Part shown: positions 11,345-55,460 of the stretch, one piece after another
Layout of the letters: the number at the start of each line of letters is the position of its first letter
Position numbering within the stretch: position 1 is the stretch's first letter
Sequence record: KP869102
Strand: one strand, 5' to 3'
DNA from: Escherichia coli O157 typing phage 4
DNA: 64,000 bases
Position numbers and translations under genes: made by a program
The notes under the pieces: generated by a model
Databases searched by the model: none
What the model was told of the DNA's origin: nothing
What the model saw: the letters and a program-made list of their open reading frames with translations, nothing else

Positions 11345-11345
11345 A

Positions 11346-39222: not shown

Positions 39223-40272
39223 ATGAATTTAACACCTCGCAGCACCATGGTACACGGCATGAAAGAAAAACAGAACGGTTTCGAACCTATGAGTAATAAA
39301 ATGTTTGGTATGCCGGGTGGTATTATGGAAACATACAGCTACCCAACACCTGTTGTTGACCACGTTCTTTATATCGACGATTTGGAAGACTTACAAGATC
39401 ATATGTCTCGTCTGCAGACGATCCGTATGGCTCAGCCGGAAGAAAGCATTCGGGTGATCATCAATAGCCCTGGGGGTTGCGTGCACATTGCAATGGCTTA
39501 TCTGCAGGCATTCCGCGAGTCTCAGGCAAGCGTTGTTGCACATGCTGAAGGGATGTGCTGCTCTGCTGGAACAATCTTATGGCTTGGTTGTAAAGAACGT
39601 ACTGTGGCTCCGGACACAGAGTTTATGTTCCACTACTATCAAGGTGGCACTTATGGTAACGGTGTGAACATGAATACTCAGGTCAGCTACTGGAAAAAAC
39701 GTTTTGAACGCCTGATCGAAAAATACTACGGTGGGGTGCTGACAGAAGATGAGATCGCATCCATCACAGCTGGTGGCGAAGTGTGGTTGGACGGAGAAGA
39801 GCTGGCAGCACGCACTGGAGCTATTATTCTGGATGAAGGCAACATACAACGCATCCAGAACGGACAAAAACCGAAAAAGCTTCTGGCAAAAGGTGATGAA
39901 GAAGGCGTGTTAGGTGAAGCAGGTCTTCCGGAGATTCACCAGTGCACATCTTTAGATGAGTTAGTTCATGCTGTTGAATCTGCAAAAGCGGGTGGTTCGA
40001 AAGGTGATGTTCACACTGTGTTCCTGAATCTGCAGATGGAAAGTGGCGAGACCGTCAGAATTGCCCTGGGTGAGATTACTTCAGAAGATCTGCAGAGATT
40101 CTCTGTCGTTGAACTTCAGGATATTCTGTCTCAATTGAAGACTACTCTGAACGGCGGTGAAGAGGTTAAGGTGAAAGATAAGACGCGCAAGCGTCTGGTG
40201 GACAATATTATTAAAACAGCAAAAGAGCTCAATGAAAAAATCCTGGGTGCAGGAATTGTCGAAGAAGCTTAA
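39223..40272 (+). CDS. ClpP-like serine protease with C-terminal extension
   Basis: INSPGG and CCSAGT motifs (ClpP/S14-like) in N-terminal ~200 aa; ~150-aa acidic C-terminal extension. Confidence 0.6.
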   Translation: MNLTPRSTMVHGMKEKQNGFEPMSNKMFGMPGGIMETYSYPTPVVDHVLYIDDLEDLQDHMSRLQTIRMAQPEESIRVIINSPGGCVHIAMAYLQAFRESQASVVAHAEGMCCSAGTILWLGCKERTVAPDTEFMFHYYQGGTYGNGVNMNTQVSYWKKRFERLIEKYYGGVLTEDEIASITAGGEVWLDGEELAARTGAIILDEGNIQRIQNGQKPKKLLAKGDEEGVLGEAGLPEIHQCTSLDELVHAVESAKAGGSKGDVHTVFLNLQMESGETVRIALGEITSEDLQRFSVVELQDILSQLKTTLNGGEEVKVKDKTRKRLVDNIIKTAKELNEKILGAGIVEEA

Positions 40273-40284
40273 ACATTAATTCTA

Positions 40285-40307
40285 AAGCCCTCTTCGGAGG
40301 GCTTTTA
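40285..40307 (+). terminator. rho-independent terminator
   Basis: AAGCCCTC-TTCG-GAGGGCTT hairpin followed by TTT. Confidence 0.7.
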
Positions 40308-40323
40308 TGATCTGGAGATTTGC

Positions 40324-40857
40324 ATGACTTGTGCTAGAAAACCTGATGAACAACGTAACGCCTACGATGAGTATGTGACACCGGAGTGGTGTGCAGAAGG
40401 GCTGTATGACCTTATTCCGTTCCCAGAAGACTGGACCTACTTAGAGCCTTGCAGGAATAGTGCCTCAGGTGTGTTCTACTCCCGTATGCCGTTAGGATCT
40501 GCATGGGGAGAAATCCAAGAAGGTGTTGACTATCTGAATACAGAATACAACCATGTTGACTGTATTATCACCAACCCGCCGTACAGCCTGGCTCGTGAGT
40601 TTGTGGACAAGGCGTTGAAAGATGCCGACGTAGTTATTATGCTTTTGCGTCTTAATTTTCTGGAAAGCAAGGCCAGATTTGAATGGTGGCTTGATAATGC
40701 ACCTACCACTGTGATCACAATATCTAAGCGCCCGTCATTCCAATCCAATGGTAGAACGGATGGGCAGGCATATGCATATTTTGTATGGGACAAGAAAAAC
40801 CGTCTAGACTTGCCGCCATTTATGTGGTTGGCACCACCAGAGGCAGATTTGAAATGA
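40324..40857 (+). CDS. DNA methyltransferase (NPPY-type, N6-adenine or N4-cytosine)
   Basis: IITNPPY motif; 177 aa. Confidence 0.6.
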   Translation: MTCARKPDEQRNAYDEYVTPEWCAEGLYDLIPFPEDWTYLEPCRNSASGVFYSRMPLGSAWGEIQEGVDYLNTEYNHVDCIITNPPYSLAREFVDKALKDADVVIMLLRLNFLESKARFEWWLDNAPTTVITISKRPSFQSNGRTDGQAYAYFVWDKKNRLDLPPFMWLAPPEADLK

Positions 40858-41138
40858 AAATGAGTGCTAAGGACAAGTTGCACCAGTTAGCGCTAAAACG
40901 TCCTGTAACGCTCCCTGACGAGCTTAACTCCATTTATGATGCGATTGTAGGGGAGATACAAAATAAAGCGTTAGCAGGCTTTCTGGGATGCGGATTTTCG
41001 ATAAATCTACCCTCACATCTCTCAGATTACTTCCCGCATATTGTTGGGGATTTGAGGGCAGGAGGTCTGCAGGTAGATGTTGTTGGCATCTCTCCAGAGA
41101 AAAATAACACGGTTGCCTACTTGACAGTAACCTGGTAG
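40854..41138 (+). CDS. hypothetical protein
   Basis: ATGA overlap with methyltransferase stop. Confidence 0.4.
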   Translation: MKMSAKDKLHQLALKRPVTLPDELNSIYDAIVGEIQNKALAGFLGCGFSINLPSHLSDYFPHIVGDLRAGGLQVDVVGISPEKNNTVAYLTVTW

Positions 41139-41140
41139 TT

Positions 41141-41413
41141 ATGTATTGTTGTTCTCAACAAGGGGGGTCATTTATGTACAAGTCATTTTCAATTTACTCA
41201 AGACAGGCGAAACACTACACAGAGATCCTGATTACTCAGAAAAAATCTGTAGAAGGTGAGTGGGAATATCACCATAAAATGTTGCGTCCAGATTGGGTTT
41301 TTGATAGACTTATTGCTATGATCCCTCTTGGAGAAGTATACCCTCTGACAGGTCATAGGGATGCTTGGGATTTAATTGATTACATAGATTCATTTAAGGA
41401 GCCCAGTGTATGA
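41141..41413 (+). CDS. hypothetical protein
   Basis: 90-aa ORF. Confidence 0.4.
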   Translation: MYCCSQQGGSFMYKSFSIYSRQAKHYTEILITQKKSVEGEWEYHHKMLRPDWVFDRLIAMIPLGEVYPLTGHRDAWDLIDYIDSFKEPSV

Positions 41414-41808
41414 AGATTGAGATCACTAAAGAAGGTAAGAAAGTGTCTGGAGACTATGCAACAGTAATTCGAGATTTAATGTTTGAAACCACCAAGTTCG
41501 GCACATCTAAAGTTGGTCAAACGGTGAGTGTGCAAGGTAATATCACCTCAGGAGAGAAGATAATCATCGTGATCAAAGGACAAGATCCTGTGGAAGGAAC
41601 AGTGGGCCGAGGAGGCTACCTGTGCATTTCTGAAGAACCGCGCATGCTGGTTGCTGATGACTCCACAGGTAAAAAGCGGGTATGTAACACTGACGAGGTG
41701 ATGATTATCTATCCAGTCAACCCAGATGATCCTGCAACATGGATTGTGGGGAATGAAATCTTCTCTTTAGAAGAGTTATCATTCCCAGCTCCGCGCTCTG
41801 TTCAGTAA
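41410..41808 (+). CDS. hypothetical protein (MKIEIT N-terminus)
   Basis: 132-aa ORF; N-terminus resembles other small proteins in this region. Confidence 0.45.
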   Translation: MKIEITKEGKKVSGDYATVIRDLMFETTKFGTSKVGQTVSVQGNITSGEKIIIVIKGQDPVEGTVGRGGYLCISEEPRMLVADDSTGKKRVCNTDEVMIIYPVNPDDPATWIVGNEIFSLEELSFPAPRSVQ

Positions 41809-41847
41809 TAATTTATCTTACCAGGGACGGTAGAAGTAGGAGGTAGC

Positions 41848-42081
41848 ATGAAAGTTAAATTTCTTACAGATTTAGGGTACCCTTCCTTGGTTGACTGCGT
41901 TGGTAAAATTGTGGAAGCAAAACGACTATCTGCAAACGATAATGTTGTCATGGTTAAGGGAAAAGATTTACTATCTGCAGGTGCAGAGTCTGGCAGGATC
42001 TCTCCTGACTATACGTATTACCTGTCTTTAAGTAATCTACCAGAACGAGGCGGCAAAGGCCTTGAAGTTGTGGAGGAGTGA
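41848..42081 (+). CDS. small acidic protein, KGxDLxxAGA paralog family
   Basis: MKVKFL start, VKGKDLLSAGA motif, acidic C-terminus VVEE. Confidence 0.45.
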   Translation: MKVKFLTDLGYPSLVDCVGKIVEAKRLSANDNVVMVKGKDLLSAGAESGRISPDYTYYLSLSNLPERGGKGLEVVEE

Positions 42082-42605
42082 CAGGTATGCTACTGGTTGA
42101 TTGGAAAGATTTTTATGGCGATAAAGACCCGAAAGCATTTATATATAAGCCTTGGAGATACTCAGAGAGTCAAATTGCTGCAATAAACCTTACAGCAAAG
42201 CGCCGAAAAATTATTGAAAGTAAATATAGATACGCCCAGCTAGTGGCTGGTGTTTCTCCACAGGTAGAGGGTTTTGTACTTAAACTGTACGAAAAGTTTA
42301 TGAATTACGATTTGTCATTCGTGAAGGTGGGCGAGGATTTATCCCCTGGTAACAACGTAACTCGTTGGAAAGTTTCGTGTGACAAAAAACTCCCGATCAG
42401 TATTGAGGTGTGTCGATACTGGGGGTATCATGATTGTGGATTGTATGACTACCATGATGTGGAAATAAAGCCACGCAATCATCTAAGCGACACAGAAAAA
42501 GATTACTTGAAGCATGTGATTCTTTCCATGTTTGGAGGGTATATCACAGAGAAAAATAGCGAAGACAGAGTATCCTTTCTTAACAGTTTGAACCAGGAGA
42601 TGTAA
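42078..42605 (+). CDS. hypothetical protein
   Basis: 175-aa ORF. Confidence 0.45.
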   Translation: MTGMLLVDWKDFYGDKDPKAFIYKPWRYSESQIAAINLTAKRRKIIESKYRYAQLVAGVSPQVEGFVLKLYEKFMNYDLSFVKVGEDLSPGNNVTRWKVSCDKKLPISIEVCRYWGYHDCGLYDYHDVEIKPRNHLSDTEKDYLKHVILSMFGGYITEKNSEDRVSFLNSLNQEM

Positions 42606-42606
42606 T

Positions 42607-42843
42607 ATGGCCATAGATACTGTGTTGGTTTGGTATTGCGCATTGACCTTTCTGACAATGGTTGTTTTAGCAACTCTTTGCATCATATCTTGTAGAAAAA
42701 TTAAGTTTGACGACTTTATAACTATAATCACTGCCGCACCTTTTTGGCCTGTCGTTCTCTTCATTGTTGTTATGTGCTTGGTAGATCACTGTAAAACCGT
42801 CAGAAAAATGAAGGAGGCAGATAAGAATGGTAACAGTGACTGA
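42607..42843 (+). CDS. small membrane protein (two predicted TM helices)
   Basis: Two hydrophobic stretches in 78 aa. Confidence 0.45.
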   Translation: MAIDTVLVWYCALTFLTMVVLATLCIISCRKIKFDDFITIITAAPFWPVVLFIVVMCLVDHCKTVRKMKEADKNGNSD

Positions 42844-42957
42844 AACTGTTTATACTGTTCTTAGGGAGATTGCATTCTATACAGACCTTAGTTCAGTATC
42901 TTCATGGGAAAAGAGTGTGTATTTAAAATGGTGCGTGAAATTAGAGGGGACCTTCTA

Positions 42958-43077
42958 ATGTTTCAAGCCATGTTTATTGAAATGCTCTCCGGAGTATTAC
43001 TGCTGGTAGCCATTTTGGGTGGTGCGGCACTAATGTATAATTATCTTGAAAAAGGAGACAGCAATGGTAAAAAATAA
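42958..43077 (+). CDS. small membrane peptide (39 aa)
   Basis: Hydrophobic core SGVLLLVAILGGAALM; AGAGGGGA RBS; overlaps the next call, so one of the two may be wrong. Confidence 0.3.
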   Translation: MFQAMFIEMLSGVLLLVAILGGAALMYNYLEKGDSNGKK

Positions 43078-43249
43078 ATCTTTAGAGCAGGCTGAAAACC
43101 TTCTCCACGAGCTGGTAAAGGAGTGGAAAGTTGAATACTCAGATTTTAATGCACGAGAGGGTGAAGATTATTGGCCTACGGAGCGCTCAGAGGGTGAATG
43201 GTATCAAGATTTTATAGAGTGGTTATATCAGACGTGCGATGAGGGGTGA
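43064..43249 (+). CDS. hypothetical protein
   Basis: ATG at 43064 with AAGGAG RBS (track ORF 43046..43249). Confidence 0.4.
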   Translation: MVKNKSLEQAENLLHELVKEWKVEYSDFNAREGEDYWPTERSEGEWYQDFIEWLYQTCDEG

Positions 43250-43707
43250 CGATGTTTGTTAAATATGTAAAAACGTGCCTCAACAGCCTTGGCAGAGAGC
43301 ATTGGTACACCTTGCTTGAAAAAGGAGAGATTTTAACAAAATCTGGAAAGATAACTTTGATACCTCTTGACAGTAAAGACCCGTCACTACTTGTTATAGA
43401 TGATTACGTTACAGGTGTGACGTTCGAGGTCTCTGTGGAGAGGTTAATACGCAGAGCTGGCGGCCCTTGTGATCAAAGAGAGTATGTTTTCGATTCCGTT
43501 ACAGAGAGGGATCATCCGTCTTTAATGTTCAGGATGGTAATCAGAGATATGAGGTCATCTATAGATAGGATCGTAAAGGACATTAAGGAACCTTTTAGAG
43601 TAAAAGTTAAGAAGTTTTTTGATTCTAAGATTAACATACTTGCCGTTGTGCTAGGCGTAATTCAACTTCTGTTAATTTTGCACTATTTTGAACTGTTGTC
43701 TAAGTAG
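43246..43707 (+). CDS. hypothetical protein with C-terminal TM helix
   Basis: 153 aa, C-terminal ILAVVLGVIQLLLILHYF. Confidence 0.45.
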   Translation: MTMFVKYVKTCLNSLGREHWYTLLEKGEILTKSGKITLIPLDSKDPSLLVIDDYVTGVTFEVSVERLIRRAGGPCDQREYVFDSVTERDHPSLMFRMVIRDMRSSIDRIVKDIKEPFRVKVKKFFDSKINILAVVLGVIQLLLILHYFELLSK

Positions 43708-43767
43708 TGTGCAACAAGGCACAAAGGATGTGCCATAATTAAACAAATTAAGAAAGAGGTAGAGAGA

Positions 43768-44115
43768 ATGTCAAAGATTAAATCGATATTAATGTGGGTA
43801 GCTGTTGTGGCTTTTATAGGGTACTGGGTTTGGGAAACTGAATTAAAAGATATCGGATATACCAGTCTTGAGAGCAAGGCGTGCATTGGCATAACCGATG
43901 CGTTCAGGCAAAACGCTATGGATCACGAATGTGTTGATGCAGATATAGATGAGAAACTGTCTAAGGACAAAGATTTTTACCATGGGCATGCTTTGCTTGA
44001 TAGTGGTGACACTGTAGAGTTCTGGTCGTGGTTCCGTGAAGATGGAACAATAAAAACAGCAGTAAAGATCTCTAACAAAGAGTTAATGCTGTTGCAGCAG
44101 AAGGAGGCTCAATGA
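43768..44115 (+). CDS. hypothetical protein with N-terminal TM helix
   Basis: 115 aa, AGAGG RBS. Confidence 0.45.
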   Translation: MSKIKSILMWVAVVAFIGYWVWETELKDIGYTSLESKACIGITDAFRQNAMDHECVDADIDEKLSKDKDFYHGHALLDSGDTVEFWSWFREDGTIKTAVKISNKELMLLQQKEAQ

Positions 44116-44399
44116 TCTGGATATCCTATACTGATGGCACCATGCTGTATACTGCAGGTACCCGATATGAGGTTCAGGAGGACGATAAAAAATTTATCGT
44201 AAAAACATTTGACAAGGACGACAACCTTTTGCTAGAATTGACTTACAAGGTTGGAGAGGTATCCGATATCCAATTGGATTGTGGTCATAAAGATAATCCA
44301 CTCAAAAAACCTGGAATAGGCAAGGCTTCAGAAGAACGTTTGTCTCGTATTGCAGAAAGCGTTTCTCCCCAAAAATCTAAGAAGAGGAGTAGAAAATGA
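44112..44399 (+). CDS. hypothetical protein
   Basis: 95 aa, ATGA overlap. Confidence 0.45.
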   Translation: MIWISYTDGTMLYTAGTRYEVQEDDKKFIVKTFDKDDNLLLELTYKVGEVSDIQLDCGHKDNPLKKPGIGKASEERLSRIAESVSPQKSKKRSRK

Positions 44400-44596
44400 G
44401 TGACAAAATTCTTAAATTTAATACCTACTATGAGAATGATTTGAACGATCTGTATTATATAGTGCGTAGCGAAAACCCGAATGTAGTACTGTTTTGCCGA
44501 GAACCTTTCAAAGGAGAGGAGATTGAATCTACCATGAATGTGGATCAGATTTCACACCTGCTGCTCCTTGGATCATTAAAAGAGGCTGTATTCTAA
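44396..44596 (+). CDS. hypothetical protein
   Basis: 66 aa, ATGA overlap. Confidence 0.4.
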   Translation: MSDKILKFNTYYENDLNDLYYIVRSENPNVVLFCREPFKGEEIESTMNVDQISHLLLLGSLKEAVF

Positions 44597-44615
44597 ACCA
44601 GGGTGGAGGGTTTTT

Positions 44616-44801
44616 ATGAAGCACTATTGTCTGTCTGGTAGAATGGGTGCAGATTGTGATTGGGTTTTCTTAAAACTTGTCAGTATTCGAGAGTTCATTC
44701 CAGAGGAAGAGCAAGAAAGTGAGCTGATGTCATGGATCAACCATTACGGTAACACTTTTCGGCATGTTAAGGTGGAAGAGTTGCCAAGCGAGGCTGATTG
44801 A
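44616..44801 (+). CDS. hypothetical protein
   Basis: 61 aa. Confidence 0.4.
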   Translation: MKHYCLSGRMGADCDWVFLKLVSIREFIPEEEQESELMSWINHYGNTFRHVKVEELPSEAD

Positions 44802-44803
44802 CT

Positions 44804-44893
44804 ATGATTGCATCAATATTAACGTTTATGGGTGGCGTGGCATTCGGATTCATTGTTTGCCTGTTTATAGTGATTATGTCTATGCGAGGCTGA
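44804..44893 (+). CDS. small membrane peptide (29 aa)
   Basis: Fully hydrophobic peptide filling the gap between neighbouring genes. Confidence 0.3.
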   Translation: MIASILTFMGGVAFGFIVCLFIVIMSMRG

Positions 44894-44896
44894 ATT

Positions 44897-45190
44897 ATGA
44901 AACTTTTTGAGTGGTTTAAAAAGTTTAAATATAAAGCTGTAGCCATCGTGCCGTGGTCCATTCAGTGGGTGGACGATGAGGGATTACCAATTCCAGGTGA
45001 TAAAGACACGGGATACTGGATCATGCTTGAGAACGGGTTCGGTAAACGGAAATATTCCTGCACGGATACCTCAGGAGCATCTTTTAGGAGAATTCCTGGG
45101 TATAAATGTATGATTGTGTGGAAGATGTCTGGTGTACCTCCGGCCAATGCACAATATCTTACTACCAATCCAACCACAGAAGAGGACTAA
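44897..45190 (+). CDS. hypothetical protein
   Basis: 97 aa. Confidence 0.4.
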   Translation: MKLFEWFKKFKYKAVAIVPWSIQWVDDEGLPIPGDKDTGYWIMLENGFGKRKYSCTDTSGASFRRIPGYKCMIVWKMSGVPPANAQYLTTNPTTEED

Positions 45191-45193
45191 GTA

Positions 45194-45475
45194 ATGAAAA
45201 AGATTTGCGATACAGATGTGGAGTTCAAGGTGTGTAGTAAGGAGACCTATTGGGAAGTGAGACAAAAGGTATATTTGTTTGGACTTATCCCATATTGGTC
45301 TAAATTCTACTGGGGAGCAGATGAATTAGGGAGATATGCCACCAAAGCTATGGCGCTTATAGGTATAGCTGAATATATTGCTGCTAGGGACAGGGCTGGA
45401 AAAACCTGCTACTACACTGCTGACGAGATTCGTAACAGTGTTTACGTCCCCCAACCACCTGAAGGAGACCGTTGA
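45194..45475 (+). CDS. hypothetical protein
   Basis: 93 aa. Confidence 0.4.
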   Translation: MKKICDTDVEFKVCSKETYWEVRQKVYLFGLIPYWSKFYWGADELGRYATKAMALIGIAEYIAARDRAGKTCYYTADEIRNSVYVPQPPEGDR

Positions 45476-45699
45476 TGAAAGTTAAAGTTTTAGATTCAAG
45501 CTTCTATATTGGTCAGGAGCCTTTAGTGGGTAAAGTGTTTACCGCTGTCCCTAACGAAGATTATCCTGATCTTTTAAAAATAAAGGGCGCAGATCTTATT
45601 GCCGCTGGTGCATCTCAGGACTGCTTTGACAGCCAGTGGACCTACAACTTTGCCCTAGGTGAGGATGTAGAGATAGTGGAGGATGATCATGAAGGTTAA
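45472..45699 (+). CDS. small acidic protein, KGxDLxxAGA paralog family
   Basis: MKVKVLD start, IKGADLIAAGA motif, acidic tail. Confidence 0.45.
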   Translation: MMKVKVLDSSFYIGQEPLVGKVFTAVPNEDYPDLLKIKGADLIAAGASQDCFDSQWTYNFALGEDVEIVEDDHEG

Positions 45700-45943
45700 A
45701 ATTCTTGACTCTAACGTCTACTTGGGGCAATCCTTCCTGAAAGGAAAGGTCATCCCTGCGGTATACTTTGAAGGGTTGCCGTGGGATGATCCTGTGCGGC
45801 AACATCACAGTTATGTAGGCCACAACGTGGTGTTTATCTTAGGATCAGACCTGATCACCGCTGGTGCACCTGAATATTATTTCGGGGAAGAGTCCTATTA
45901 TGCCTTTGGGGTAGGGTCAGATGCAGATATTGTAGAGCTGTGA
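45689..45943 (+). CDS. small acidic protein, KGxDLxxAGA paralog family
   Basis: MKVKILD start, GSDLITAGA motif; start chosen at ATG 45689 after GGAGGA RBS. Confidence 0.45.
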   Translation: MKVKILDSNVYLGQSFLKGKVIPAVYFEGLPWDDPVRQHHSYVGHNVVFILGSDLITAGAPEYYFGEESYYAFGVGSDADIVEL

Positions 45944-45955
45944 TGGGTAACCGTT

Positions 45956-46354
45956 GTGAAAAATAAACTGTTCAAAGTTACAATGAAAATTCGCGGAGCT
46001 TGGAGCGTAAAGCAAGGGCGTATCCCAGAATTTGAGAAAGATTTCTACGTAGTCTCCACCTCGGAGGAGGCTGCATGCTGGCAGGCTGGCTATGCCTATG
46101 CAAGAACCTGGTACGAAGGATACCAGACTGGGGGCTATGACGGAGAAATTATCAGCAAGGGTGTAGAAGAAATTAATGTGTTGACAAGTGAAAAAGTTTT
46201 TGTTATAGTGCATCCAGATTCCAGAGTGAAGCATTACTGGAATGCCAGAACAAAAACTTGGACACCGTTTGCAGATTCTGCTACGCCACTTTTAAACCAG
46301 AAAGCTCTTGACTCTGCCCCAAGTTATGGGGTTGTTGAAGAAAAGCTAAACTGA
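45956..46354 (+). CDS. hypothetical protein (paralog of 48165..48560)
   Basis: Shares HPxS...YW...WTP segment with 48165 gene; apparent GTG start. Confidence 0.45.
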   Translation: MKNKLFKVTMKIRGAWSVKQGRIPEFEKDFYVVSTSEEAACWQAGYAYARTWYEGYQTGGYDGEIISKGVEEINVLTSEKVFVIVHPDSRVKHYWNARTKTWTPFADSATPLLNQKALDSAPSYGVVEEKLN

Positions 46355-46371
46355 AACAGTGAGGTGTCACC

Positions 46372-46662
46372 ATGATGGATTTAATTCTAAATATTGATAA
46401 CGCAGAAGAATTTAAAGACGATGGTGTAACAAGCATGGGCAAACCATGCTCTGCTAAGGTTGACTCAAAATGGACCTACAAGTTTGACGGAGAGATCTTC
46501 GCAAATGATGAGAAGGTTGTAGATGCTGCAGCCATTTTAAACGCTCTAGGGTACGACCCTGTGAATTCTTTGATCAAGGATCCTGTTGAGTTTGCAGAGT
46601 ATGTTCGAAAAATGGCAGATCTTGCTGTGGATATTTTAAAAACTATCGACAACAAGCTGTAA
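46372..46662 (+). CDS. hypothetical protein
   Basis: 96 aa. Confidence 0.45.
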   Translation: MMDLILNIDNAEEFKDDGVTSMGKPCSAKVDSKWTYKFDGEIFANDEKVVDAAAILNALGYDPVNSLIKDPVEFAEYVRKMADLAVDILKTIDNKL

Positions 46663-46668
46663 AAACTG

Positions 46669-46697
46669 TTGACACAACGCTTCAGATTTAGTATCAT
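46669..46697 (+). promoter_or_regulatory. sigma70-like promoter
   Basis: TTGACA - 17 nt - TATCAT upstream of hpf-like gene. Confidence 0.55.
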
Positions 46698-46744
46698 TGT
46701 TTTCAAAGAGGGTTTGGTTCCCTCTTCTTTAAAAGGAACATGTT

Positions 46745-47062
46745 GTGCAAATTGAAATCACTGGCAACGTAGAGATCACTGAAGGTATGGTGTCTTTCAT
46801 TTCCCACAAAATGTCTAAGCTGGAGCGTTTGCACCCCTCTGCCAACTATGCACGTGTGAGTGTAAAAGTTGAAAATGATCACCAGGAAGTCATGGCGTTC
46901 ATTTTTGACACTTCCGGAAAAGAAGTTATTGCCAAAGCTAAAGGCAGTAACGCTTACGAGGCAACTGACCGTATGGTAGATGTTGCAGCACGTCAGTTGG
47001 CTAAATGCGGTGGAAAGAAAGGTAAAGGGAAAGGCAAAGTAAAGATTGACTTTGGAGAATGA
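46745..47062 (+). CDS. hpf: ribosome hibernation promoting factor homolog (HPF/RaiA/YfiA family)
   Basis: N-terminal MQIEITGNVEITEGM and overall pattern match the HPF fold family; Lys/Gly-rich C-terminus; GTG start. Confidence 0.6.
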   Translation: MQIEITGNVEITEGMVSFISHKMSKLERLHPSANYARVSVKVENDHQEVMAFIFDTSGKEVIAKAKGSNAYEATDRMVDVAARQLAKCGGKKGKGKGKVKIDFGE

Positions 47063-47071
47063 GGTGCTACA

Positions 47072-47173
47072 ATGGGCGTGATTAAGAAATTAGTCCCAAA
47101 TGTAGAGATTGCATGCTTTGAAATTATGTTTGCAATCGCAGTTGTAGTTAATGTGTTAGGTTACGGCTATTAA
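47072..47173 (+). CDS. small membrane peptide (33 aa)
   Basis: GAGGTG RBS, hydrophobic core FEIMFAIAVVVNVLG. Confidence 0.3.
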   Translation: MGVIKKLVPNVEIACFEIMFAIAVVVNVLGYGY

Positions 47174-47199
47174 TATCAAATAATTGAGGAGACCTCTAA

Positions 47200-47469
47200 A
47201 TGAAAATTAAATTATTCAAAACTGAGCTGGCAGACAAAAACTGTGGACTGGTTGAAGGCATGATCGTTGAAGCACAACCAGTGGACTACATGAAGGTAGT
47301 TCGTGATGCCTTGGGTGAAGGCTTTGATCTGATGGAGCCAGCTCTGCGAGAAGATGTTATCGAGATGGCTAAAAAGCACACACCTGAAGGCTTGGTGGTG
47401 TTTGTTGCACCGGGTAACGGAGAAGAGTTGATTGTAACTCCTGATGTGTATGAGATTGTAGAAGAGTAA
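47200..47469 (+). CDS. small acidic protein (MKIKLF N-terminus)
   Basis: 89 aa, acidic tail IVEE. Confidence 0.45.
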   Translation: MKIKLFKTELADKNCGLVEGMIVEAQPVDYMKVVRDALGEGFDLMEPALREDVIEMAKKHTPEGLVVFVAPGNGEELIVTPDVYEIVEE

Positions 47470-47564
47470 TCCTGCTCGGATTAGCATACTTCTCTCAATA
47501 AAAAGAAAAGTTTGTAATTATTTGTGGGAAAGGAATCCCCATCTCTTGCCAGAGGTGATACTAT

Positions 47565-47828
47565 ATGATTGTTTATTTTAAAACTTCAGGTGGATACCCT
47601 GATTCTCAAAGCTTGATCGGAAAAACGTGCACAGCATACTCACCTCTTGATGAGGAGGTAAGCGATATTCTACGAGATATGTATCGGATTGATCCCCAAA
47701 AAGCTTTTGATCAAAACCTTGTATTTGTCAAGGGCTCAGACATGAAGTCTTTGGGAGCATTCCCTGAAGCAGATGATGATGCCGTTTATTCGTTCATGAC
47801 TCCTTTTGAAGCTATGGTTGTTGGGTGA
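47565..47828 (+). CDS. small acidic protein, KGxDLxxAGA-related
   Basis: VKGSDMKSLGA motif; 87 aa. Confidence 0.45.
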   Translation: MIVYFKTSGGYPDSQSLIGKTCTAYSPLDEEVSDILRDMYRIDPQKAFDQNLVFVKGSDMKSLGAFPEADDDAVYSFMTPFEAMVVG

Positions 47829-47832
47829 GAAT

Positions 47833-48165
47833 ATGAAAGTACGATTTATTGGTGAAACAATTCCTGTGCATCTCCGGTCGCCTGAAGATTCTGCAGATCT
47901 TGCATCTCAGAAGGCGAGAGGTTATGATAAGAAAGTAATCTCAAACGCTGTAGAACTTGAGGCTACTAGTTTACCTGACCCTGCCGCATTCTTTAATCAT
48001 TATGGATACTATTTCAGCAATCTGATGAATATCGGTGAGCTTGTGTTTATTAGTGGTGGAGAAATTGTTAGCAAGCTTGGCGGCGATCCGGATGTCTTTC
48101 ATGAAACCTGTCCTTTTGCATTTGTGGTAGGTTCAGATGTGGAAGTTATTGAGGAGGTGCGGTAA
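47833..48165 (+). CDS. small acidic protein (MKVRFIG N-terminus)
   Basis: Start at ATG 47833; acidic tail VEVIEEVR. Confidence 0.45.
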   Translation: MKVRFIGETIPVHLRSPEDSADLASQKARGYDKKVISNAVELEATSLPDPAAFFNHYGYYFSNLMNIGELVFISGGEIVSKLGGDPDVFHETCPFAFVVGSDVEVIEEVR

Positions 48166-48560
48166 TGGTAAGACTATACCGTGTTGAGTATAGCTCAGAT
48201 ACTGTATACAACGTAAGAAGCAAAGATCGCAGCGACAGAGTGCAAGAAATGTATGTTCTTGCCGACAGTCCGTTATCTGCAGCGTTCAAGGCAGGGTCTC
48301 TTGCATCTCGTTGGAAATTTGAAGGTGGATCTTTCTATGAAGAAACCCTTGAAGATTCTGTTGTTATTTCTTCTGCAGAGGTTTCAGATGACTACGAAGG
48401 GAAAAAGTTCGTAATGCGGCACCCACACAGCAACATTGCGTACTACTGGGATGTTCTGAACAACGAGTGGACCCCAGATCTTCAGAAGGCCACTGTGCTA
48501 ACACCGTTTTTGGCAGATAAGTTTCCACCAGAAGGTAATTTATCCGCACTGTTTCAGTAA
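48165..48560 (+). CDS. hypothetical protein (paralog of 45956..46354)
   Basis: Shared motif RHPHSNIAYYW...EWTP. Confidence 0.45.
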   Translation: MVRLYRVEYSSDTVYNVRSKDRSDRVQEMYVLADSPLSAAFKAGSLASRWKFEGGSFYEETLEDSVVISSAEVSDDYEGKKFVMRHPHSNIAYYWDVLNNEWTPDLQKATVLTPFLADKFPPEGNLSALFQ

Positions 48561-48578
48561 TTTTCTTGCACACAGGTG

Positions 48579-48608
48579 TTGACAACGCCAACCCTGTGTG
48601 AAATAATA
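48579..48608 (+). promoter_or_regulatory. sigma70-like promoter flanked by inverted repeat CACAGG/CCTGTG
   Basis: TTGACA with -10-like AATAAT; palindrome arms bracket the -35. Confidence 0.45.
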
Positions 48609-48636
48609 CCTTCATCTTAACAAGACAGGAGACCGA

Positions 48637-48897
48637 TTGATGAAGATTAAATTGAAAAACCTTGAAACGGCAGAGATTCAGGACGGTGTGGATTTCCGTT
48701 CTAAAGATGGTGACATCTTAGAGGTAAATATTCCAACCTACGAGCTGATCAAAGGTTTTGGCAACGTCCCCGAGGAAGGTATCGCAGACGTTCTTATAAT
48801 GTTAATCGTTAGTGGGACAGTGTTCTTGGGGGAAGGTGAGAACGCTATTGCAATCCCAAGCCATTTTTATGAAGTAGTTGACGAAGAGGCGCTGTAA
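48637..48897 (+). CDS. small acidic protein (MKIKL N-terminus)
   Basis: 86 aa, acidic tail VVDEEAL. Confidence 0.45.
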   Translation: MMKIKLKNLETAEIQDGVDFRSKDGDILEVNIPTYELIKGFGNVPEEGIADVLIMLIVSGTVFLGEGENAIAIPSHFYEVVDEEAL

Positions 48898-49248
48898 ATG
48901 AAAGTAGAAATTACTGGTTTTGATGTGAATGTGGTTCCGGAAGATATTTTAGCTAAACTCCCGGAAGGTTTTGGTAACGGTGTTGTGGTGGATGCTGTTC
49001 CTCCTACCAAAGACATTCTGCTGCAGTATGGTGTAGCAGAGGAAGATGTTGATAAAGTTCTTACAATGATGGCAATCGATCGTGTTGTCGTTGTTAAAGG
49101 TCTCGATAATTTTGAGAGTGATCCTCTGATTATTCGTGGAGATGACTACAAAATCATCGATAATGAAGGCCAAGAGTTCTATGAGCCTTGTGCAGAAGAT
49201 ATTCTTAACTTATTACTGGAAGCAGGCACCGAAGAGGAGGACGAATAA
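48898..49248 (+). CDS. small acidic protein (MKVEITG N-terminus)
   Basis: 116 aa, acidic tail TEEEDE. Confidence 0.45.
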   Translation: MKVEITGFDVNVVPEDILAKLPEGFGNGVVVDAVPPTKDILLQYGVAEEDVDKVLTMMAIDRVVVVKGLDNFESDPLIIRGDDYKIIDNEGQEFYEPCAEDILNLLLEAGTEEEDE

Positions 49249-49577
49249 TGAAGATTGACCCGTTACTGAAGGCTCGTGCAGAAAAAGCGTACACCATTAA
49301 GCTGACCAACCTGGTTCCTACTTGTCATCCAGATGTAGGTTGGCCCGAAGGTTTGGTGGAGGGAACTGTAACAGCTGCATACCTTCCTAACATCAAATAC
49401 CTCATGGAGATCTTAGAGATGGATGAGGAAACTGCAGAACAGTTCCAGTTGGATATGAAACAGAGTGGGACTCTGGTTATTCACGGGTGGTATAATACTA
49501 AAGATGCAGAAGACCCTCTGGTAACTTCTAATCTGGCATATGAAATCTTAGGGCCTTTGAACCTGGAGGAAGACTAA
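49248..49577 (+). CDS. hypothetical protein
   Basis: 109 aa, overlapping start/stop. Confidence 0.45.
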   Translation: MKIDPLLKARAEKAYTIKLTNLVPTCHPDVGWPEGLVEGTVTAAYLPNIKYLMEILEMDEETAEQFQLDMKQSGTLVIHGWYNTKDAEDPLVTSNLAYEILGPLNLEED

Positions 49578-49864
49578 TGAAAGATCTGGTTAAGATTAAG
49601 ATTAAAGATACCAATGGGGAGCTCAGCCATTTTGGAATTAATGATGGTGACGAGCTGATCGCACACCTGCCTACCAAGGAGGTTGTAAGCAAAGCAGTTG
49701 CCGGAGAAGAAGCTGCAATGCAGGCTGCAGGTGTGGATGAAAACTATGTAGCTATGTGCATGTGCCGAGATCAGGTTGTTCTGTATAAAGCGTATCGACC
49801 AAACGGAGCCACGGAGTGGCTTGTATTCCGACCCGAAGGATATGAAATCTTAGAGGCACTATGA
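49577..49864 (+). CDS. hypothetical protein
   Basis: 95 aa. Confidence 0.45.
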   Translation: MKDLVKIKIKDTNGELSHFGINDGDELIAHLPTKEVVSKAVAGEEAAMQAAGVDENYVAMCMCRDQVVLYKAYRPNGATEWLVFRPEGYEILEAL

Positions 49865-49953
49865 TAAATCTTGCCAAGGTTGCAACGGCACTGTTAATTA
49901 TTTGCTGGTCAGTAACCTTAACACTGTGTCTTGTATTTCAGTGAGGTGCTTGT

Positions 49954-50217
49954 ATGAACATCCTGATGTGGGTTATAGCAGTGGCGTTTGTTGCATGTTT
50001 TTGCTGCTGGGTTGCGGTGAGGATTTCTGTAGCTACCCTTCGGAAGTTGGGGTTCTCAGAATGGGATATTAATATCCTTTCTTTTCGCAATGAGACAATA
50101 TCAGCCGCCCTGCTTTGTAAGAAATTCAAGTGGGAACCTTGTGAGGTCATGAACTATCTAAGAACGGGAGATATCCCTGAAAGATTTAAAAAAGTTCTTG
50201 ACGGTAAGGATAAATGA
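49954..50217 (+). CDS. small membrane protein
   Basis: N-terminal TM helix; 87 aa. Confidence 0.4.
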   Translation: MNILMWVIAVAFVACFCCWVAVRISVATLRKLGFSEWDINILSFRNETISAALLCKKFKWEPCEVMNYLRTGDIPERFKKVLDGKDK

Positions 50218-50245
50218 TAGTATAGTGACTAACAAGAGGTGAGGA

Positions 50246-50386
50246 ATGACAGATTTTACTGAAGCTTTAATGATGGCCTTGTCTGTTTTAGCGCTATCGG
50301 TGTGTTTTGGGGCGTTATTCACATCTCTGGTTAAAGTTTTACATACAGTATTATTACCCAAGGAGCGCAGTAATGACGAAGATTGA
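50246..50386 (+). CDS. small membrane peptide (46 aa)
   Basis: GAGGTGAGGA RBS; hydrophobic core; overlaps next gene start. Confidence 0.3.
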   Translation: MTDFTEALMMALSVLALSVCFGALFTSLVKVLHTVLLPKERSNDED

Positions 50387-50624
50387 CTTGAATGCTGGCG
50401 ACCATGTTGTTGTCAAATGCATCGGAGATTATCTTGGATTCACAATCGGCAATACTTACGAGGCGGTAGTGGCGAAGGTTTATCATGATAAAGTCCTCAG
50501 TCTTGTATTTGACTGCGATGATGATGGGGATGACCGATACGTCTGTGAGGTGCTGGCACGAGACGATAGTGAAGACCAGAAATTCCTGGTTATTGAACTG
50601 AACGGTATTTTTGTAGAACGTTAA
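50373..50624 (+). CDS. hypothetical acidic protein
   Basis: ATG at 50373 with AAGGAG RBS. Confidence 0.4.
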   Translation: MTKIDLNAGDHVVVKCIGDYLGFTIGNTYEAVVAKVYHDKVLSLVFDCDDDGDDRYVCEVLARDDSEDQKFLVIELNGIFVER

Positions 50625-50652
50625 TTTAAAACAACATAAGGAGACTCTTACT

Positions 50653-50958
50653 ATGGCTAAATCTAAAGTTGAACTGTTCACCTCTCTTCCTTCTGACACT
50701 GCAGAGCGTGATCGCCTTCGCAAAACAATCGAAGAACTGGTGGAACTCCAACTTCAGATTAAAGATCTGAAAGATGCCATCAAGGATATCATTCTTGTTG
50801 AGAAGCAGGATCATCTGTATTCTCCTAAATTCATCAAATCTCTGGTGGCTACCGAGTTCGATATTCGATATGAGGCTGAAAAACGTCGAGCTAAAATCGA
50901 AGAAGAGGTTGAGCACATGTCCGAGGCAGACATTCTGTTCAAACGCTCTGTAGAATAA
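50653..50958 (+). CDS. hypothetical coiled-coil protein
   Basis: 101 aa, AAGGAG RBS. Confidence 0.45.
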   Translation: MAKSKVELFTSLPSDTAERDRLRKTIEELVELQLQIKDLKDAIKDIILVEKQDHLYSPKFIKSLVATEFDIRYEAEKRRAKIEEEVEHMSEADILFKRSVE

Positions 50959-50964
50959 TGACAA

Positions 50965-50990
50965 AGAGAGGGGCTTGGGCCCCTCTTTTT
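50965..50990 (+). terminator. rho-independent terminator
   Basis: GAGAGGGGC-TTG-GGCCCCTCT hairpin followed by TTTT. Confidence 0.7.
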
Positions 50991-51013
50991 ACTATCTATG
51001 AAGGAGATTTGAG

Positions 51014-51340
51014 ATGGGTATACCGATCACTGTAAAAGAATTGAATGAACGTGATGCAGGTGGTCTATGGCCTGCACGAAAAATACGCTGCGTCTACATG
51101 AAAGAGAACCTTGAACATCTTGATCAACAGATCAAGGTCGGTGATATTTTCGAGGTCTTCTATTCCAATCGTCGCAACTGGGAAACCATTCAGCCTTCTG
51201 GTTTTGTTCTTGCCAAACTTGACACTGGAGAAGTGATTATCCCAGGGTTGGATATTGTCTTCGAAATTATCCAGGAGTGGGATCCGGATAAGATTAGATA
51301 TGAAGAGTTATTCGGTGAAGGTATTATCAAACCTGTGTGA
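51014..51340 (+). CDS. hypothetical protein
   Basis: 108 aa, AAGGAG RBS. Confidence 0.45.
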   Translation: MGIPITVKELNERDAGGLWPARKIRCVYMKENLEHLDQQIKVGDIFEVFYSNRRNWETIQPSGFVLAKLDTGEVIIPGLDIVFEIIQEWDPDKIRYEELFGEGIIKPV

Positions 51341-51648
51341 GGTGGATTATGTCTACAAAGACGGCTAAATACTCCTACATGCCATCAACCTCTGCAGAGG
51401 TAGATTTTAGTTTCGATGTGTTTCCACTGTTTGAGGTGGTTCTGGCATACCCAACAATACTATCTACTCCGGAATCACTTGTGCCTGTTAAGTTGCAGAA
51501 CGCCATGCATTCTATGCACTACAACAATAAATGCAGGCACAGATGGTGTCAGGACGAGGAAAAAGATCTGGATAGTTTGAGAGATTTTGACAGTCACCTT
51601 TTGACACCTTTCAGCTACTCCAACCTTGATAAGCCATCATGGGTATAG
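51337..51648 (+). CDS. hypothetical protein
   Basis: 103 aa, ATGA overlap. Confidence 0.4.
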   Translation: MRWIMSTKTAKYSYMPSTSAEVDFSFDVFPLFEVVLAYPTILSTPESLVPVKLQNAMHSMHYNNKCRHRWCQDEEKDLDSLRDFDSHLLTPFSYSNLDKPSWV

Positions 51649-51861
51649 CAAAATATCAAATTTAAGACACCTAGGACGCTCTGTGGCGTCCTTTTCTTTA
51701 TCTGGTGCACGATTGCATACCTTGGACAGATAATCTCCTTACAGAGCGTTTAAGAGCTTCCTACAAACAACTCTCTTTTTCGAGCGTAGCGAGAACGCAC
51801 GTCCGTTTTGACCAAAATCACCATACGCTCGGATTTTAACCAAACCCTCGCGGCGTTTCTG

Positions 51862-51891
51862 TTGACACATTGCCGCTCCAGTGATAATATC
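51862..51891 (+). promoter_or_regulatory. sigma70-like promoter
   Basis: TTGACA - 18 nt - TAATAT. Confidence 0.5.
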
Positions 51892-51910
51892 CACACATCA
51901 TTTGGAGAAT

Positions 51911-52012
51911 ATGGAATACACAATGAAAACATTGTCCGAAGTTTTAGTGGTGATCCTGATGATCATTACGTCCATAGCGGCTGTTGCCGGAATACTCACG
52001 GGTGGAACATGA
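51911..52012 (+). CDS. small membrane peptide (33 aa)
   Basis: GGAG RBS; hydrophobic LVVILMIITSIAAVAGIL; ATGA overlap with next gene. Confidence 0.3.
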   Translation: MEYTMKTLSEVLVVILMIITSIAAVAGILTGGT

Positions 52013-52221
52013 TCAACACACATGCATCTGAAGAGACATCAAAAGGAGTGACTATATGTCCCTTGGCTGAGCCAGTGAAAGAGGAAAACTTCGATTCTGA
52101 AGATTCTCCATCTTCGCTCCAGGTAGACCCTGAGGCTGATGACCTAACGTGGGAAGACATCGTAGATATCTGGTTCTCTGTTATGCCTGAGCACGAAGAG
52201 TTCAGGGGTGGTAGACTATGA
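52009..52221 (+). CDS. hypothetical acidic protein
   Basis: Internal ATG of track ORF 51808..52221; the upstream part of that ORF would run through the promoter. Confidence 0.35.
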   Translation: MINTHASEETSKGVTICPLAEPVKEENFDSEDSPSSLQVDPEADDLTWEDIVDIWFSVMPEHEEFRGGRL

Positions 52222-52342
52222 AGCACCGAGCCCACACAAGTTCCTCATGCTAAAGCATGGCCTGAAGAGGCAAACGTGCATAATTCCTGTGCATCGGAAC
52301 GTATGAAACCTTGTTCACACTCTCATTTCCAGAGGAGATTTT

Positions 52343-52558
52343 ATGAAGATAGAAATATTTGGTGGAGCTGACAACACTCGTGGCCTGATTTACCTTGAAT
52401 TCGATGAATCATACCTACCAGAGGTGTTAAATATAGACTCTGTTGCGGAGGCTTTGGGAGTAAACCCTAAAGAACTCCACTCTTGTGCTGAGATCGATGG
52501 TTGGGAAGAGACCATGAACATTGATTTCAGTGAAGTAGAGGATGAACCGCTGGACTGA
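52343..52558 (+). CDS. small acidic protein (MKIEIFG N-terminus)
   Basis: 71 aa, GGAG RBS, acidic tail. Confidence 0.4.
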   Translation: MKIEIFGGADNTRGLIYLEFDESYLPEVLNIDSVAEALGVNPKELHSCAEIDGWEETMNIDFSEVEDEPLD

Positions 52559-52793
52559 CACACAATTAGCTGCCCGGCTAAAGTGCTGGAAGCACCTATA
52601 ACACATCTTTCAACTAAATTTCCCACCACAACAATCACTTACCTCCCATACATGACTGTTTGCTTGTTTAGTGAGCAGTCATGCCTTGACATTCTTGCCT
52701 ATCCTGATAAAATTAAGTTCTTCTCTTTTCTTTTACCGAGTAATTCGGGTTTTCTGTTCTCTTCGGTTTGAAGGGGTATGGAGATACACCTGA

Positions 52794-52893
52794 NNNNNNN
52801 NNNNNNNNNNNNNNNNNNNNNNNNNNNNNNNNNNNNNNNNNNNNNNNNNNNNNNNNNNNNNNNNNNNNNNNNNNNNNNNNNNNNNNNNNNNNN
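52794..52893. other. assembly gap (run of N)
   Basis: 100 consecutive N. Confidence 0.99.
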
Positions 52894-52944
52894 TTAGTGG
52901 CGGGAAGTTTTCCCGCCTGTGTTTTTAATTATACTTATTGAGAT

Positions 52945-53205
52945 TTACTTGTCAACACTATTTTTTAAATTATTGTGGCGCAAAATGTTTAAAATCTCTT
53001 CAACGTCATCAACACGGCGGCAATTTTTAAACGCTACCAATTGCCCCATGATTTTAATCACTGGGCGGCCTTGCCAGTGCCCCTGGAGAAAGCGCGCCTT
53101 GACTTTATCAGTGGAACTATCACGCCACCAAACGGCCTTGTTATTGCAGTAGTAAAAATTATTCAGGACAATATCAACTTTATCAAAATTTTTTAATTTA
53201 CGCAT
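52945..53205 (-). CDS. hypothetical protein
   Basis: 86-aa minus-strand ORF. Confidence 0.4.
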   Translation of the reverse strand: MRKLKNFDKVDIVLNNFYYCNNKAVWWRDSSTDKVKARFLQGHWQGRPVIKIMGQLVAFKNCRRVDDVEEILNILRHNNLKNSVDK

Positions 53206-53413
53206 AGTGTTTACTCCTTCCTTCTTGCTTTGATGTGGTTAGTATATCCGGACTATTCCAAGGTGTCAAGCTTTAAATAAAATCACTGTCAATGATATTT
53301 TTAACACCATAAAACGGCCCTGGGTGATGTTTTCAGGCTAAGAAAGGGGATTGCATAGGTAGGGGCTTTTGTGGCGTTTGTGGGGCCAACCAGGGGCGCT
53401 ATTCGTAGGATAG

Positions 53414-53442
53414 AAATAAAAAGCCCCGCACAATGGCGGGGC
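53414..53442 (-). terminator. rho-independent terminator
   Basis: On minus strand GCCCCGC-CATTGT-GCGGGGC followed by TTTTTATTT. Confidence 0.55.
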
Positions 53443-53531
53443 GTTGGTTGTTATTTGTCTTTATGGCGGTATCGTTCCGCTTGTCGTTCACGTTCCAAAA
53501 GTAGGCCCGGCAATTTACGATCATAATGATT

Positions 53532-53633
53532 CCNNNNNNNNNNNNNNNNNNNNNNNNNNNNNNNNNNNNNNNNNNNNNNNNNNNNNNNNNNNNNNNNNNN
53601 NNNNNNNNNNNNNNNNNNNNNNNNNNNNNNNNN
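53532..53633. other. assembly gap (run of N)
   Basis: About 100 consecutive N. Confidence 0.99.
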
Positions 53634-53949
53634 TGGCCTGAATCGCCCGGATACGGCGTTTTATAACCTCCTGATCCGTGCAATCGTATCCCCAAAAGTC
53701 TACAATTTTCGCGCCGCCAGCTTTTAAGCGGTATAATGTTTCTTGCATTTTGTAAGCTGGGATCGGTCGCGGTGTTACCTGGTCGCCTTTTTCATCCTTG
53801 TACTTGATTATGTAGTCCTCGTTGTCGTTGAATACCCAAAAAGGGTACTCTGTAAGGGCGTTGCTTTCTTTTTCGTTTTTAGATTGGATCTTGTTTACAA
53901 TTAAAGCCGTAGCAATAGCGCCAATAATAAAACTAGCCCCGCTGATCAT
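53634..53949 (-). CDS. hypothetical protein with N-terminal TM helix, partial (runs into gap)
   Basis: Minus ORF from ATG ~53949; 3-prime end lost in N run. Confidence 0.35.
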
Positions 53950-54024
53950 GTTACTTTCTCCTTTCATTGTGTTGATAAACTATCTTTATAGATGGCCCTG
54001 TTACCAGGACCACCGAAAAAATAA

Positions 54025-54270
54025 CTATTTCACAATGCCTACAAAACAGATCCCGCCTTCACCTATATAGGCAATATCGGTAATTTTATAATTTGTCAAG
54101 ATCCGCGTGTTCAGATCATTAATAAAATCGGTCATCGCGTTGGTGTAGTTGTCTTCCGTGTCTAAGGCATAATCCCAGGTGTAAACCTTTTTACGTCCGA
54201 AGCCTTTTACCATGATACGGGCGCTTTTGGTGTTGGTAGGGGCATAATATTTGGTGATTAGTGCTGCCAT
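54025..54270 (-). CDS. hypothetical protein
   Basis: 81 aa, AGGAG RBS. Confidence 0.4.
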   Translation of the reverse strand: MAALITKYYAPTNTKSARIMVKGFGRKKVYTWDYALDTEDNYTNAMTDFINDLNTRILTNYKITDIAYIGEGGICFVGIVK

Positions 54271-54359
54271 GGTTTTAACTCCTCTGAATTAGTTCAGTGT
54301 TAACAGTATAAAGTTTACTTTATTGATGGCCCTGAAGTCAAGGCCATCTAAAAATAAAC

Positions 54360-55376: not shown

Positions 55377-55460
55377 AGCTTTTCCTCTGTGTTGGCGGGA
55401 TGTTTCCCGCCTTTTGTGTCTAGTTTACTTGAATTTTGCAGCGTGTCAATAATTTTTTTT

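Follow-up and report, generated by a model that had tools for sequence, protein, structure and literature searches.

Three families of small paralogous proteins, two of them predicted SH3-like barrels, in an accessory gene block of the Escherichia coli O157 typing phage 4

Why a phage should maintain a long run of small, mostly acidic and mostly nameless proteins is the question raised by positions 41410–52558 of the window analysed here, a stretch of 64,000 nucleotides (nt) from the Escherichia coli O157 typing phage 4 (sequence record KP869102). A first-pass annotation of this stretch had described a dense block of about 40 small genes containing one expanded family of acidic paralogues, and had considered the architecture typical of a host-takeover or anti-defence region. 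The present analysis does not uphold the single acidic family: there are two sequence families, designated A (gp119, gp132, gp133, gp139 and gp140) and B (gp138 and gp142–gp145), which are predicted to have a common fold—the SH3-like small β-barrel—and, in addition, an unrelated pair, gp134 and gp141, designated family C.

Concerning the block itself, the density seen earlier holds, with 37 coding sequences (CDSs) in the RefSeq annotation, all on the + strand, a coding share of 90.8%, a median product of 89 amino acids (aa) and 18 of the 36 junctions overlapping or at most 5 nt apart. The only RefSeq names other than ‘hypothetical’ are a RaiA/HPF homologue, a ‘virion structural protein’ and a ‘transcriptional regulator’. 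The median isoelectric point (pI) of the products is 4.87, and 21 of the 37 have a pI below 5, compared with 18% of the 39 long open reading frames (ORFs) elsewhere in the window. A nucleotide search matched the entire block at 100% to positions 91554–102702 of the Escherichia phage JES2013 (NC_022323), belonging to the genus Vequintavirus (rV5-like), and more than 110 related genomes share it at 90–98% identity. A syntenic block, with protein identities of 28–97%, is also carried by L008, a diverged Vequintavirus-like contig of 125.8 kb that was reached via a family A homologue. Since the ratios of nonsynonymous to synonymous substitution rates (dN/dS) against this relative are 0.05–0.45, or dS is saturated, the ORFs of the block are, judged from their sequences, real genes under purifying selection.

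The five proteins of family A are connected by all-versus-all blastp (gp132/gp133, E = 5e-14; gp119/gp132, 6e-7; gp133/gp140, 1e-4; gp119/gp139, 6e-3), and a hidden Markov model (HMM) built from them retrieves those five alone among the 667 ORFs of the window. Three of them match phrog_5009 in PHROGs (gp119, E = 8.5e-36; gp132, 1.1e-38; gp133, 7e-32), gp139 does so weakly (1.2e-4), and gp140 is joined to the family by blastp, HMM and hhalign. The paralogues with an MKVK(I/F)L start and a KG(x)DL core noticed in the first pass are thus real, but the family has five members rather than the four listed, gp140 having been overlooked; the annotated start of the second member lies at 45475 and not at 45472, and the member at 47565 begins with MIVYFK and possesses a degenerate core, KGSDMKSLGA. 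When the family A profile was compared with all other proteins of the block, the only matches, weak and N-terminal, were to gp138 and gp142. A short stretch of gp135 (DSKWTYKF) resembles family A as well; it corresponds to a direct repeat, D3, 78% identical at the nucleotide level to its equivalent in gp132, and is aligned by hhalign with P = 4.5e-4 over 8 columns, which is too short to assign membership. This segment suggests a remnant of, or a recombination with, a family A gene. Otherwise, the direct DNA repeats within the block are short remnants of paralogy, with no repeated regulatory element among them.

Family B is hidden at the level of single sequences. For the other acidic proteins with MK(I/V)(K/E)I starts, an all-versus-all hhalign comparison of single sequences (595 pairs) yielded best P values of 0.006–0.007, i.e. 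those expected by chance over 595 comparisons, and the N-terminus of the unrelated HPF homologue (MQIEITG) matched gp154 as well as any candidate pair. With two-sequence profiles including the L008 orthologues (Bonferroni limit P = 1.4e-4), gp138, gp142, gp143, gp144 and gp145 become a significant second family, with P values from 5.5e-6 to 1.1e-4. The pair gp142–gp143 is aligned over 84 columns (P = 5.5e-6), gp143–gp144 with P = 5.6e-6 and gp138–gp145 over 85 columns (P = 1.1e-4), whereas the remaining pairs give weaker but consistent links among the same five proteins. The L008 orthologue of gp143 also matches gp144 by blastp (E = 4e-4), and the alignment of 16 family B sequences is coherent. 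The ‘several others’ with such starts and acidic tails mentioned in the first pass have, therefore, to be divided: five form family B, while gp118, gp154 and the HPF homologue gp136 are placed outside it by profile comparison. The last of these, despite its MQIEITG start resembling the ‘MKIEI’ ones, is unrelated to family A, too.

The second paralogous pair recognised earlier, starting at 45956 and 48165, was confirmed as family C: gp134 and gp141 match each other by blastp (E = 4e-10), belong together to phrog_7379 and have in common the motif HPxS..YW..WTP. Of the two, gp134 is missing from L008. All five family A and all five family B paralogues are kept in order in that contig, at 28–74% identity. 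It follows that the duplications are old and that every copy has been maintained.

The AlphaFold2 model of gp132, obtained with 21 family sequences, has a predicted local distance difference test (pLDDT) score of 94.2 and a predicted template modelling (pTM) score of 0.80, and consists of a five-stranded barrel with one short helix; its matches in BFVD, with template modelling (TM) scores up to 0.86, are uncharacterised small phage proteins only. The AlphaFold model of gp138 (pLDDT 93.1; pTM 0.74) contains the same five strands and, as an insertion between strands 2 and 3, three helices. In both models the five strands make up an incompletely closed barrel which can be superposed on SH3, KOW or PsaE structures, as is typical of the SH3-like small β-barrel class, and families A and B are accordingly predicted to be such barrels. 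It should be pointed out that this concerns the fold class and not the canonical SH3 family, since no member of A or B has a Pfam hit at E ≤ 0.1, SH3_1 and its relatives included. The insertions of gp133, gp139 and gp140 relative to gp132 fall into the same strand 2–3 loop as the helices of gp138, and within a family the members differ chiefly by such insertions. Sequence comparison does not unite A and B in one superfamily: profile–profile comparison aligned them over the first 10 residues only (P = 0.005), the best cross-family pair having P = 0.012. The two are alike in their fold, insertion site, MK(I/V)K(L/I) first strand and hydrophobic-then-acidic last strand, and the shared fold, insertion site and termini are at most suggestive of a common origin.

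The acidity of these proteins could also be explained by DNA mimicry, an idea raised in the first pass: like Ocr, ArdA or Gp5.9, they would block defence proteins that bind DNA, restriction enzymes among them. The net charge, −6 to −21 for most members (gp143, −21; gp142, −11; gp132, −10; gp138, −10), and the position of the genes in an accessory block are in agreement with it; the charge, however, is weak evidence by itself because acidity is shared by 21 of the 37 products of the block, and the predicted folds are compact SH3-like barrels of 74–89 residues, unlike the elongated helical mimics such as Ocr or ArdA. No DNA mimic is present among the structural hits of the gp132 and gp138 models, and this explanation appears very improbable. 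The T7 proteins Ocr and Gp5.9 and the T4 protein Arn resemble families A and B in being small, acidic, dispensable on laboratory strains and encoded in early accessory blocks, but they adopt other folds and are single-copy, whereas the scaffold of A and B occurs five-fold twice.

With regard to databases, the family not recognised in the first pass has remained without a name: sequence searches of Pfam, NCBIfam and PDB gave no match for families A, B and C or for ORF151, and across the ORFs of the block the HPF homologue was the sole match. PHROGs hold the same proteins, matched over their full length (E = 1e-32 to 1e-76), all of them labelled as of unknown function; there, families A and B are spread over eight groups—those of family B being phrog_11868, 12359, 12155, 12457 and 12794—with no statement on fold or paralogy. 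A search of 50,697 phage records by tblastn with gp132 and gp143 found Vequintavirus only, at identities of at least 84%. The family A profile gave 24 hits in 1.84 billion representatives and, in a search of 5.8 billion proteins, 68 clusters, none with a Pfam domain. Beyond the Vequintavirus lineage, family A is mostly single-copy and located among early or accessory genes, e.g. in Morganella lambdoid prophages between RecT/YqaJ and the integrase, adjoining NinX, as well as in the replication modules of phages of 27–46 kb; a conserved partner gene downstream of it was looked for in these other phages and none was found. Vequintavirus-like genomes account for all 55 hits of family B and for the 6 clusters of family C obtained in the 5.8 billion proteins.

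Functional evidence is available from a 2025 preprint on HIDEN-SEQ (doi 10.1101/2025.11.20.689424), reporting transposon-insertion sequencing on the phage Bas54 (MaxBurger, MZ501093), from which all the values for this phage given below originate. According to blastp, bas54_0167 to bas54_0135 correspond one-to-one to ORF118–ORF154, mostly at 95–100% identity, with ORF125–ORF130 missing. On E. coli K-12, each gene of the block was classified as non-essential or intermediate, or had too few TA sites to be called. For bas54_0140, to which ORF151 is directly orthologous, a knockout confirmed a counter-defence role: the gene is required to overcome DS-28, predicted to be a defence system of the clinical strain CFE311, on which its log2 fold change (log2FC) is −5.48. 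The block therefore carries a counter-defence function; bas54_0140 and ORF151 exhibit no similarity to family A, B or C by blastp or hhalign. On CFE311, zero reads were recorded for insertions in the orthologues of gp139 (bas54_0152; log2FC −7.16), gp140 (bas54_0151; −6.17) and gp141 (bas54_0150; −6.77), all with q = 0, and the gp134 orthologue bas54_0157 was depleted as well (−2.14; q = 0). The value for bas54_0153 (gp138) was −2.78, not significant, and in the supplementary rows examined bas54_0158 (gp133) was not depleted (−0.30), the orthologues of gp119 (bas54_0166), gp132 and gp142–gp145 being likewise unaffected. The depletion of bas54_0150–0152 is found in the supplement of the preprint and is absent from its main text. 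Outside the block, bas54_0106, 0123 and 0132–0134 were also strongly depleted on this strain. In Extended Data Table 8 (sheets S6/S7), the command line given in the sheet labelled CFE303 is that of CFE311, and the numbers of this sheet agree with those for CFE311 wherever rows were compared; as far as those rows go, it duplicates the CFE311 output, so that one clinical strain is documented for Bas54.

The same data leave room for a less probable alternative, in which family C alone is of importance on CFE311: gp141 and, to a lesser degree, gp134 would be the host-specific factors, the depletion of gp139 and gp140 insertions would be a polar effect on gp141, and families A and B would have no demonstrated role. 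The genes for gp139, gp140 and gp141 adjoin one another (4 and −1 nt at the two junctions), the consensus scan detected no promoter-like site between them, and both family C orthologues are depleted while those of gp119, gp132 and gp133—family A members located elsewhere—are not, in the rows examined. Polarity is, however, argued against by the authors of the preprint in general, since insertions upstream of essential genes are usually tolerated (doi 10.1101/2025.11.20.689424), and by two local observations: insertions in the gp133 orthologue, immediately ahead of the depleted orthologue of gp134, show no depletion in the rows examined, which argues against a strong polar effect, and bas54_0153 (gp138), further upstream of the run, is affected weakly and non-significantly.

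Taking the above results together, we favour, with modest confidence, the reading that the block is a dispensable accessory toolbox of small, mostly acidic proteins serving on particular hosts, in which the SH3-like paralogues neutralise host proteins. The block, an accessory region of Vequintavirus, would be transcribed by the host RNA polymerase; the predicted barrels may act as stand-alone protein-binding modules; each paralogue would bind and neutralise a different host protein by way of its acidic surface together with the loop or insertion in which it varies, the target most likely being a component of a defence system; and gene duplication would have built the repertoire of specificities. 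At the fold level, a similar case is Nip from the Bacillus phage Phi3T, a counter-defence protein with predicted SH3-like domains that binds the defence protein it counteracts, the TIR protein SpbK (PMC11984713); it differs from families A and B by being 279 aa long, with two SH3-like domains and an HU-like dimerisation domain, and by originating from a Bacillus phage (PMC11984713). The similarity is one of fold, and no relationship in sequence is expected.

Host takeover in a general sense—inhibiting or redirecting host transcription, translation, replication or nucleases rather than inhibiting dedicated defence systems—has also to be considered. An HPF/RaiA homologue and a putative transcriptional regulator are encoded in the same block, RNA polymerase, ribosome partners or nucleic acids are frequent binding partners of SH3-like, KOW and Tudor-type barrels, and most members exhibit no strain-specific phenotype in the rows examined. 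Dispensability of all of them on K-12 would, however, be unexpected for core takeover factors—albeit redundancy among paralogues could mask a requirement—and the phenotypes that do exist are specific to the host strain; this explanation is regarded as distinctly unlikely. The host-takeover or anti-defence character proposed in the first pass is supported at the level of the block by the published Bas54 data, most A and B members having no phenotype. In other words, the accessory and anti-defence reading is partly supported, because the genes are dispensable on K-12, bas54_0140 has been validated and the orthologues of gp139–gp141 are depleted on CFE311; the support comes from published work and not from sequence alone. 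It should be noted that a counter-defence role is based on a published knockout for the ORF151 orthologue, and that those of gp139, gp140, gp141 and gp134, with transposon depletion on CFE311, are candidates for such a role.

Several points weigh against the proposed neutralisation of host proteins by the SH3-like paralogues. Three of the five family A members (gp119, gp132 and gp133) and four of the five family B members are not depleted on CFE311 in the rows examined. Furthermore, gp139, gp140 and gp141 are consecutive with gp141 last, so that polarity on gp141 alone could yield the family A signal, and the likewise depleted gp134, the other member of family C, fits that alternative. What is available on conditional need stems from a single strain and from the supplementary tables of a single preprint, and the early timing would be indicated by matches to promoter consensus.

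As to that timing, a σ70-like site precedes the gp142–gp145 run, and further strong sites lie in intergenic gaps of the block (Table 1); the gap upstream of gp139 contains no clear promoter or terminator. In the rV5 genome paper the block falls within a single long transcription unit served by promoters of the E. coli type, and the paralogues go unmentioned. Early transcription of the block is plausible, given the consensus matches.

Table 1 Features of the accessory block, with positions in the window and the evidence for each
Feature	Position	Strand	Evidence or remark
Whole accessory block, ORF118–ORF154	41410..52558	+	37 small CDSs; orthologous to bas54_0167–0135
gp119, family A, 77 aa, predicted SH3-like barrel, minimal form	41848..42081	+	blastp, HMM, phrog_5009
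gp132, family A, 74 aa, protein modelled	45475..45699	+	
gp133, family A, 84 aa, insertion of ~14 residues between strands 2 and 3	45689..45943	+	blastp, alignment
gp134, family C, 132 aa	45956..46354	+	blastp, phrog_7379
gp135, 96 aa, short family-A-like segment	46372..46662	+	direct repeat D3; hhalign
ORF136, HPF/RaiA homologue, outside all paralogous families	46745..47062	+	Pfam PF02482
gp138, family B, 89 aa, modelled SH3-like barrel, three-helix insertion, protein modelled	47200..47469	+	
gp139, family A, 87 aa, longer insertion in the same loop	47565..47828	+	HMM 2.4e-31; phrog_13920, weak phrog_5009
gp140, family A, 110 aa, two insertions	47833..48165	+	blastp; HMM 3.9e-28; hhalign P = 1.3e-6; phrog_13661
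gp141, family C, 131 aa, ends the gp139–gp140–gp141 run	48165..48560	+	blastp, phrog_7379
gp142, family B, 85 aa	48640..48897	+	hhalign to gp143
gp143, family B, 116 aa, net charge −21, additional acidic helix at the C-terminus	48898..49248	+	hhalign, blastp
gp144, family B, 109 aa	49248..49577	+	hhalign, blastp via L008, alignment
gp145, family B, 95 aa	49577..49864	+	hhalign, alignment
ORF149, putative transcriptional regulator	50653..50958	+	phrog_639 E = 1e-21; Pfam GapR-like hit below threshold
ORF151, 99 aa	51349..51648	+	bas54_0140 orthologue, 98% identity (blastp); phrog_12072, unknown function
Putative σ70-like promoter, 11/12 match, TG-extended	48579..48607	+	upstream of the gp142–gp145 run; consensus scan only
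Other strong σ70-like sites in intergenic gaps	46669–46697, 47046–47073, 50198–50226, 51862–51890	+	consensus scan

Among the remaining genes of the block, ORF136 matches the Pfam family PF02482 (Ribosomal_S30AE) with E = 7e-12 and 46.4 bits against a cut-off of 23.7, which identifies it as a homologue of ribosome hibernation factors. The segment ORF125–ORF130 (43252–45190), including ORF125, the ‘virion structural protein’, is missing in MaxBurger/Bas54, whereas L008, the more distant of the two, possesses it; the gene content of the block therefore varies within the genus. ORF120–ORF122 (42087–42958) are only 52–71% identical to their MaxBurger counterparts, compared with 95–100% for the flanking genes, a pattern resembling a hot spot of local replacement or diversification. 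ORF120 is a ‘putative glycosidase’ in the BASEL annotation, a name without Pfam support. An Rfam scan of positions 40000–57000 gave no match.

Immediately after the block, positions 52559–55000 correspond to the ~2 kb ‘non-coding’ region of rV5. In Bas54, zero transposon insertions were recorded between bas54_0134 and bas54_0135, and the authors propose an important role for the locus (doi 10.1101/2025.11.20.689424). This intergenic stretch, without a match in Rfam, contains a perfect 12/12 σ70 consensus on the − strand (52955–52928), a bidirectional GC-rich hairpin (53423–53442) and unannotated − strand ORFs of 81–113 aa (54360–54701, 54025–54270 and 52945–53205). Five runs of 100 N, i.e. masked sequence, are present in the window (52794–52893, 53534–53633, 61185–61284, 63028–63127 and 63417–63516), two of them within this insertion-free region. 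Far from the block, four tRNA genes (Pro-TGG, Met-CAT, Thr-TGT and Arg-TCT) are clustered at 11182–11718 on the − strand.

Concerning what is already known, the genes are present in public records and in PHROGs, and accessory blocks encoding small, acidic early proteins, paralogues included, are a well-known phenomenon. The division of these paralogues into three families, the hidden family B among them, the common SH3-like fold and insertion site of A and B, and the link of families A and C to the undiscussed depletion on CFE311 were not found in the literature searched.

Blocks of small genes of unknown function make up much of large phage genomes, and counter-defence functions have repeatedly been found there. 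In the present case, 12 of the 37 ‘hypothetical proteins’ are reduced to three families, two of which are given a confidently predicted fold, and the complete disappearance of insertions in the orthologues of gp139, gp140 and gp141 on the uropathogenic strain CFE311 is a stronger effect than that recorded for the validated bas54_0140. The rV5-like phages are in use for O157 biocontrol and therapy, so that such host-range determinants are of practical value. Tentatively, and as an unlikely case, families A and B may represent one ancient, fast-diverging scaffold—ten stand-alone SH3-like binders, the strand 2–3 insertions of which would each recognise a different immune protein. If so, the array would be a modular, duplicable library of inhibitors, and its single-copy relatives would have the same role, be it in lambdoid prophages of Morganella and Proteus or elsewhere among phages.

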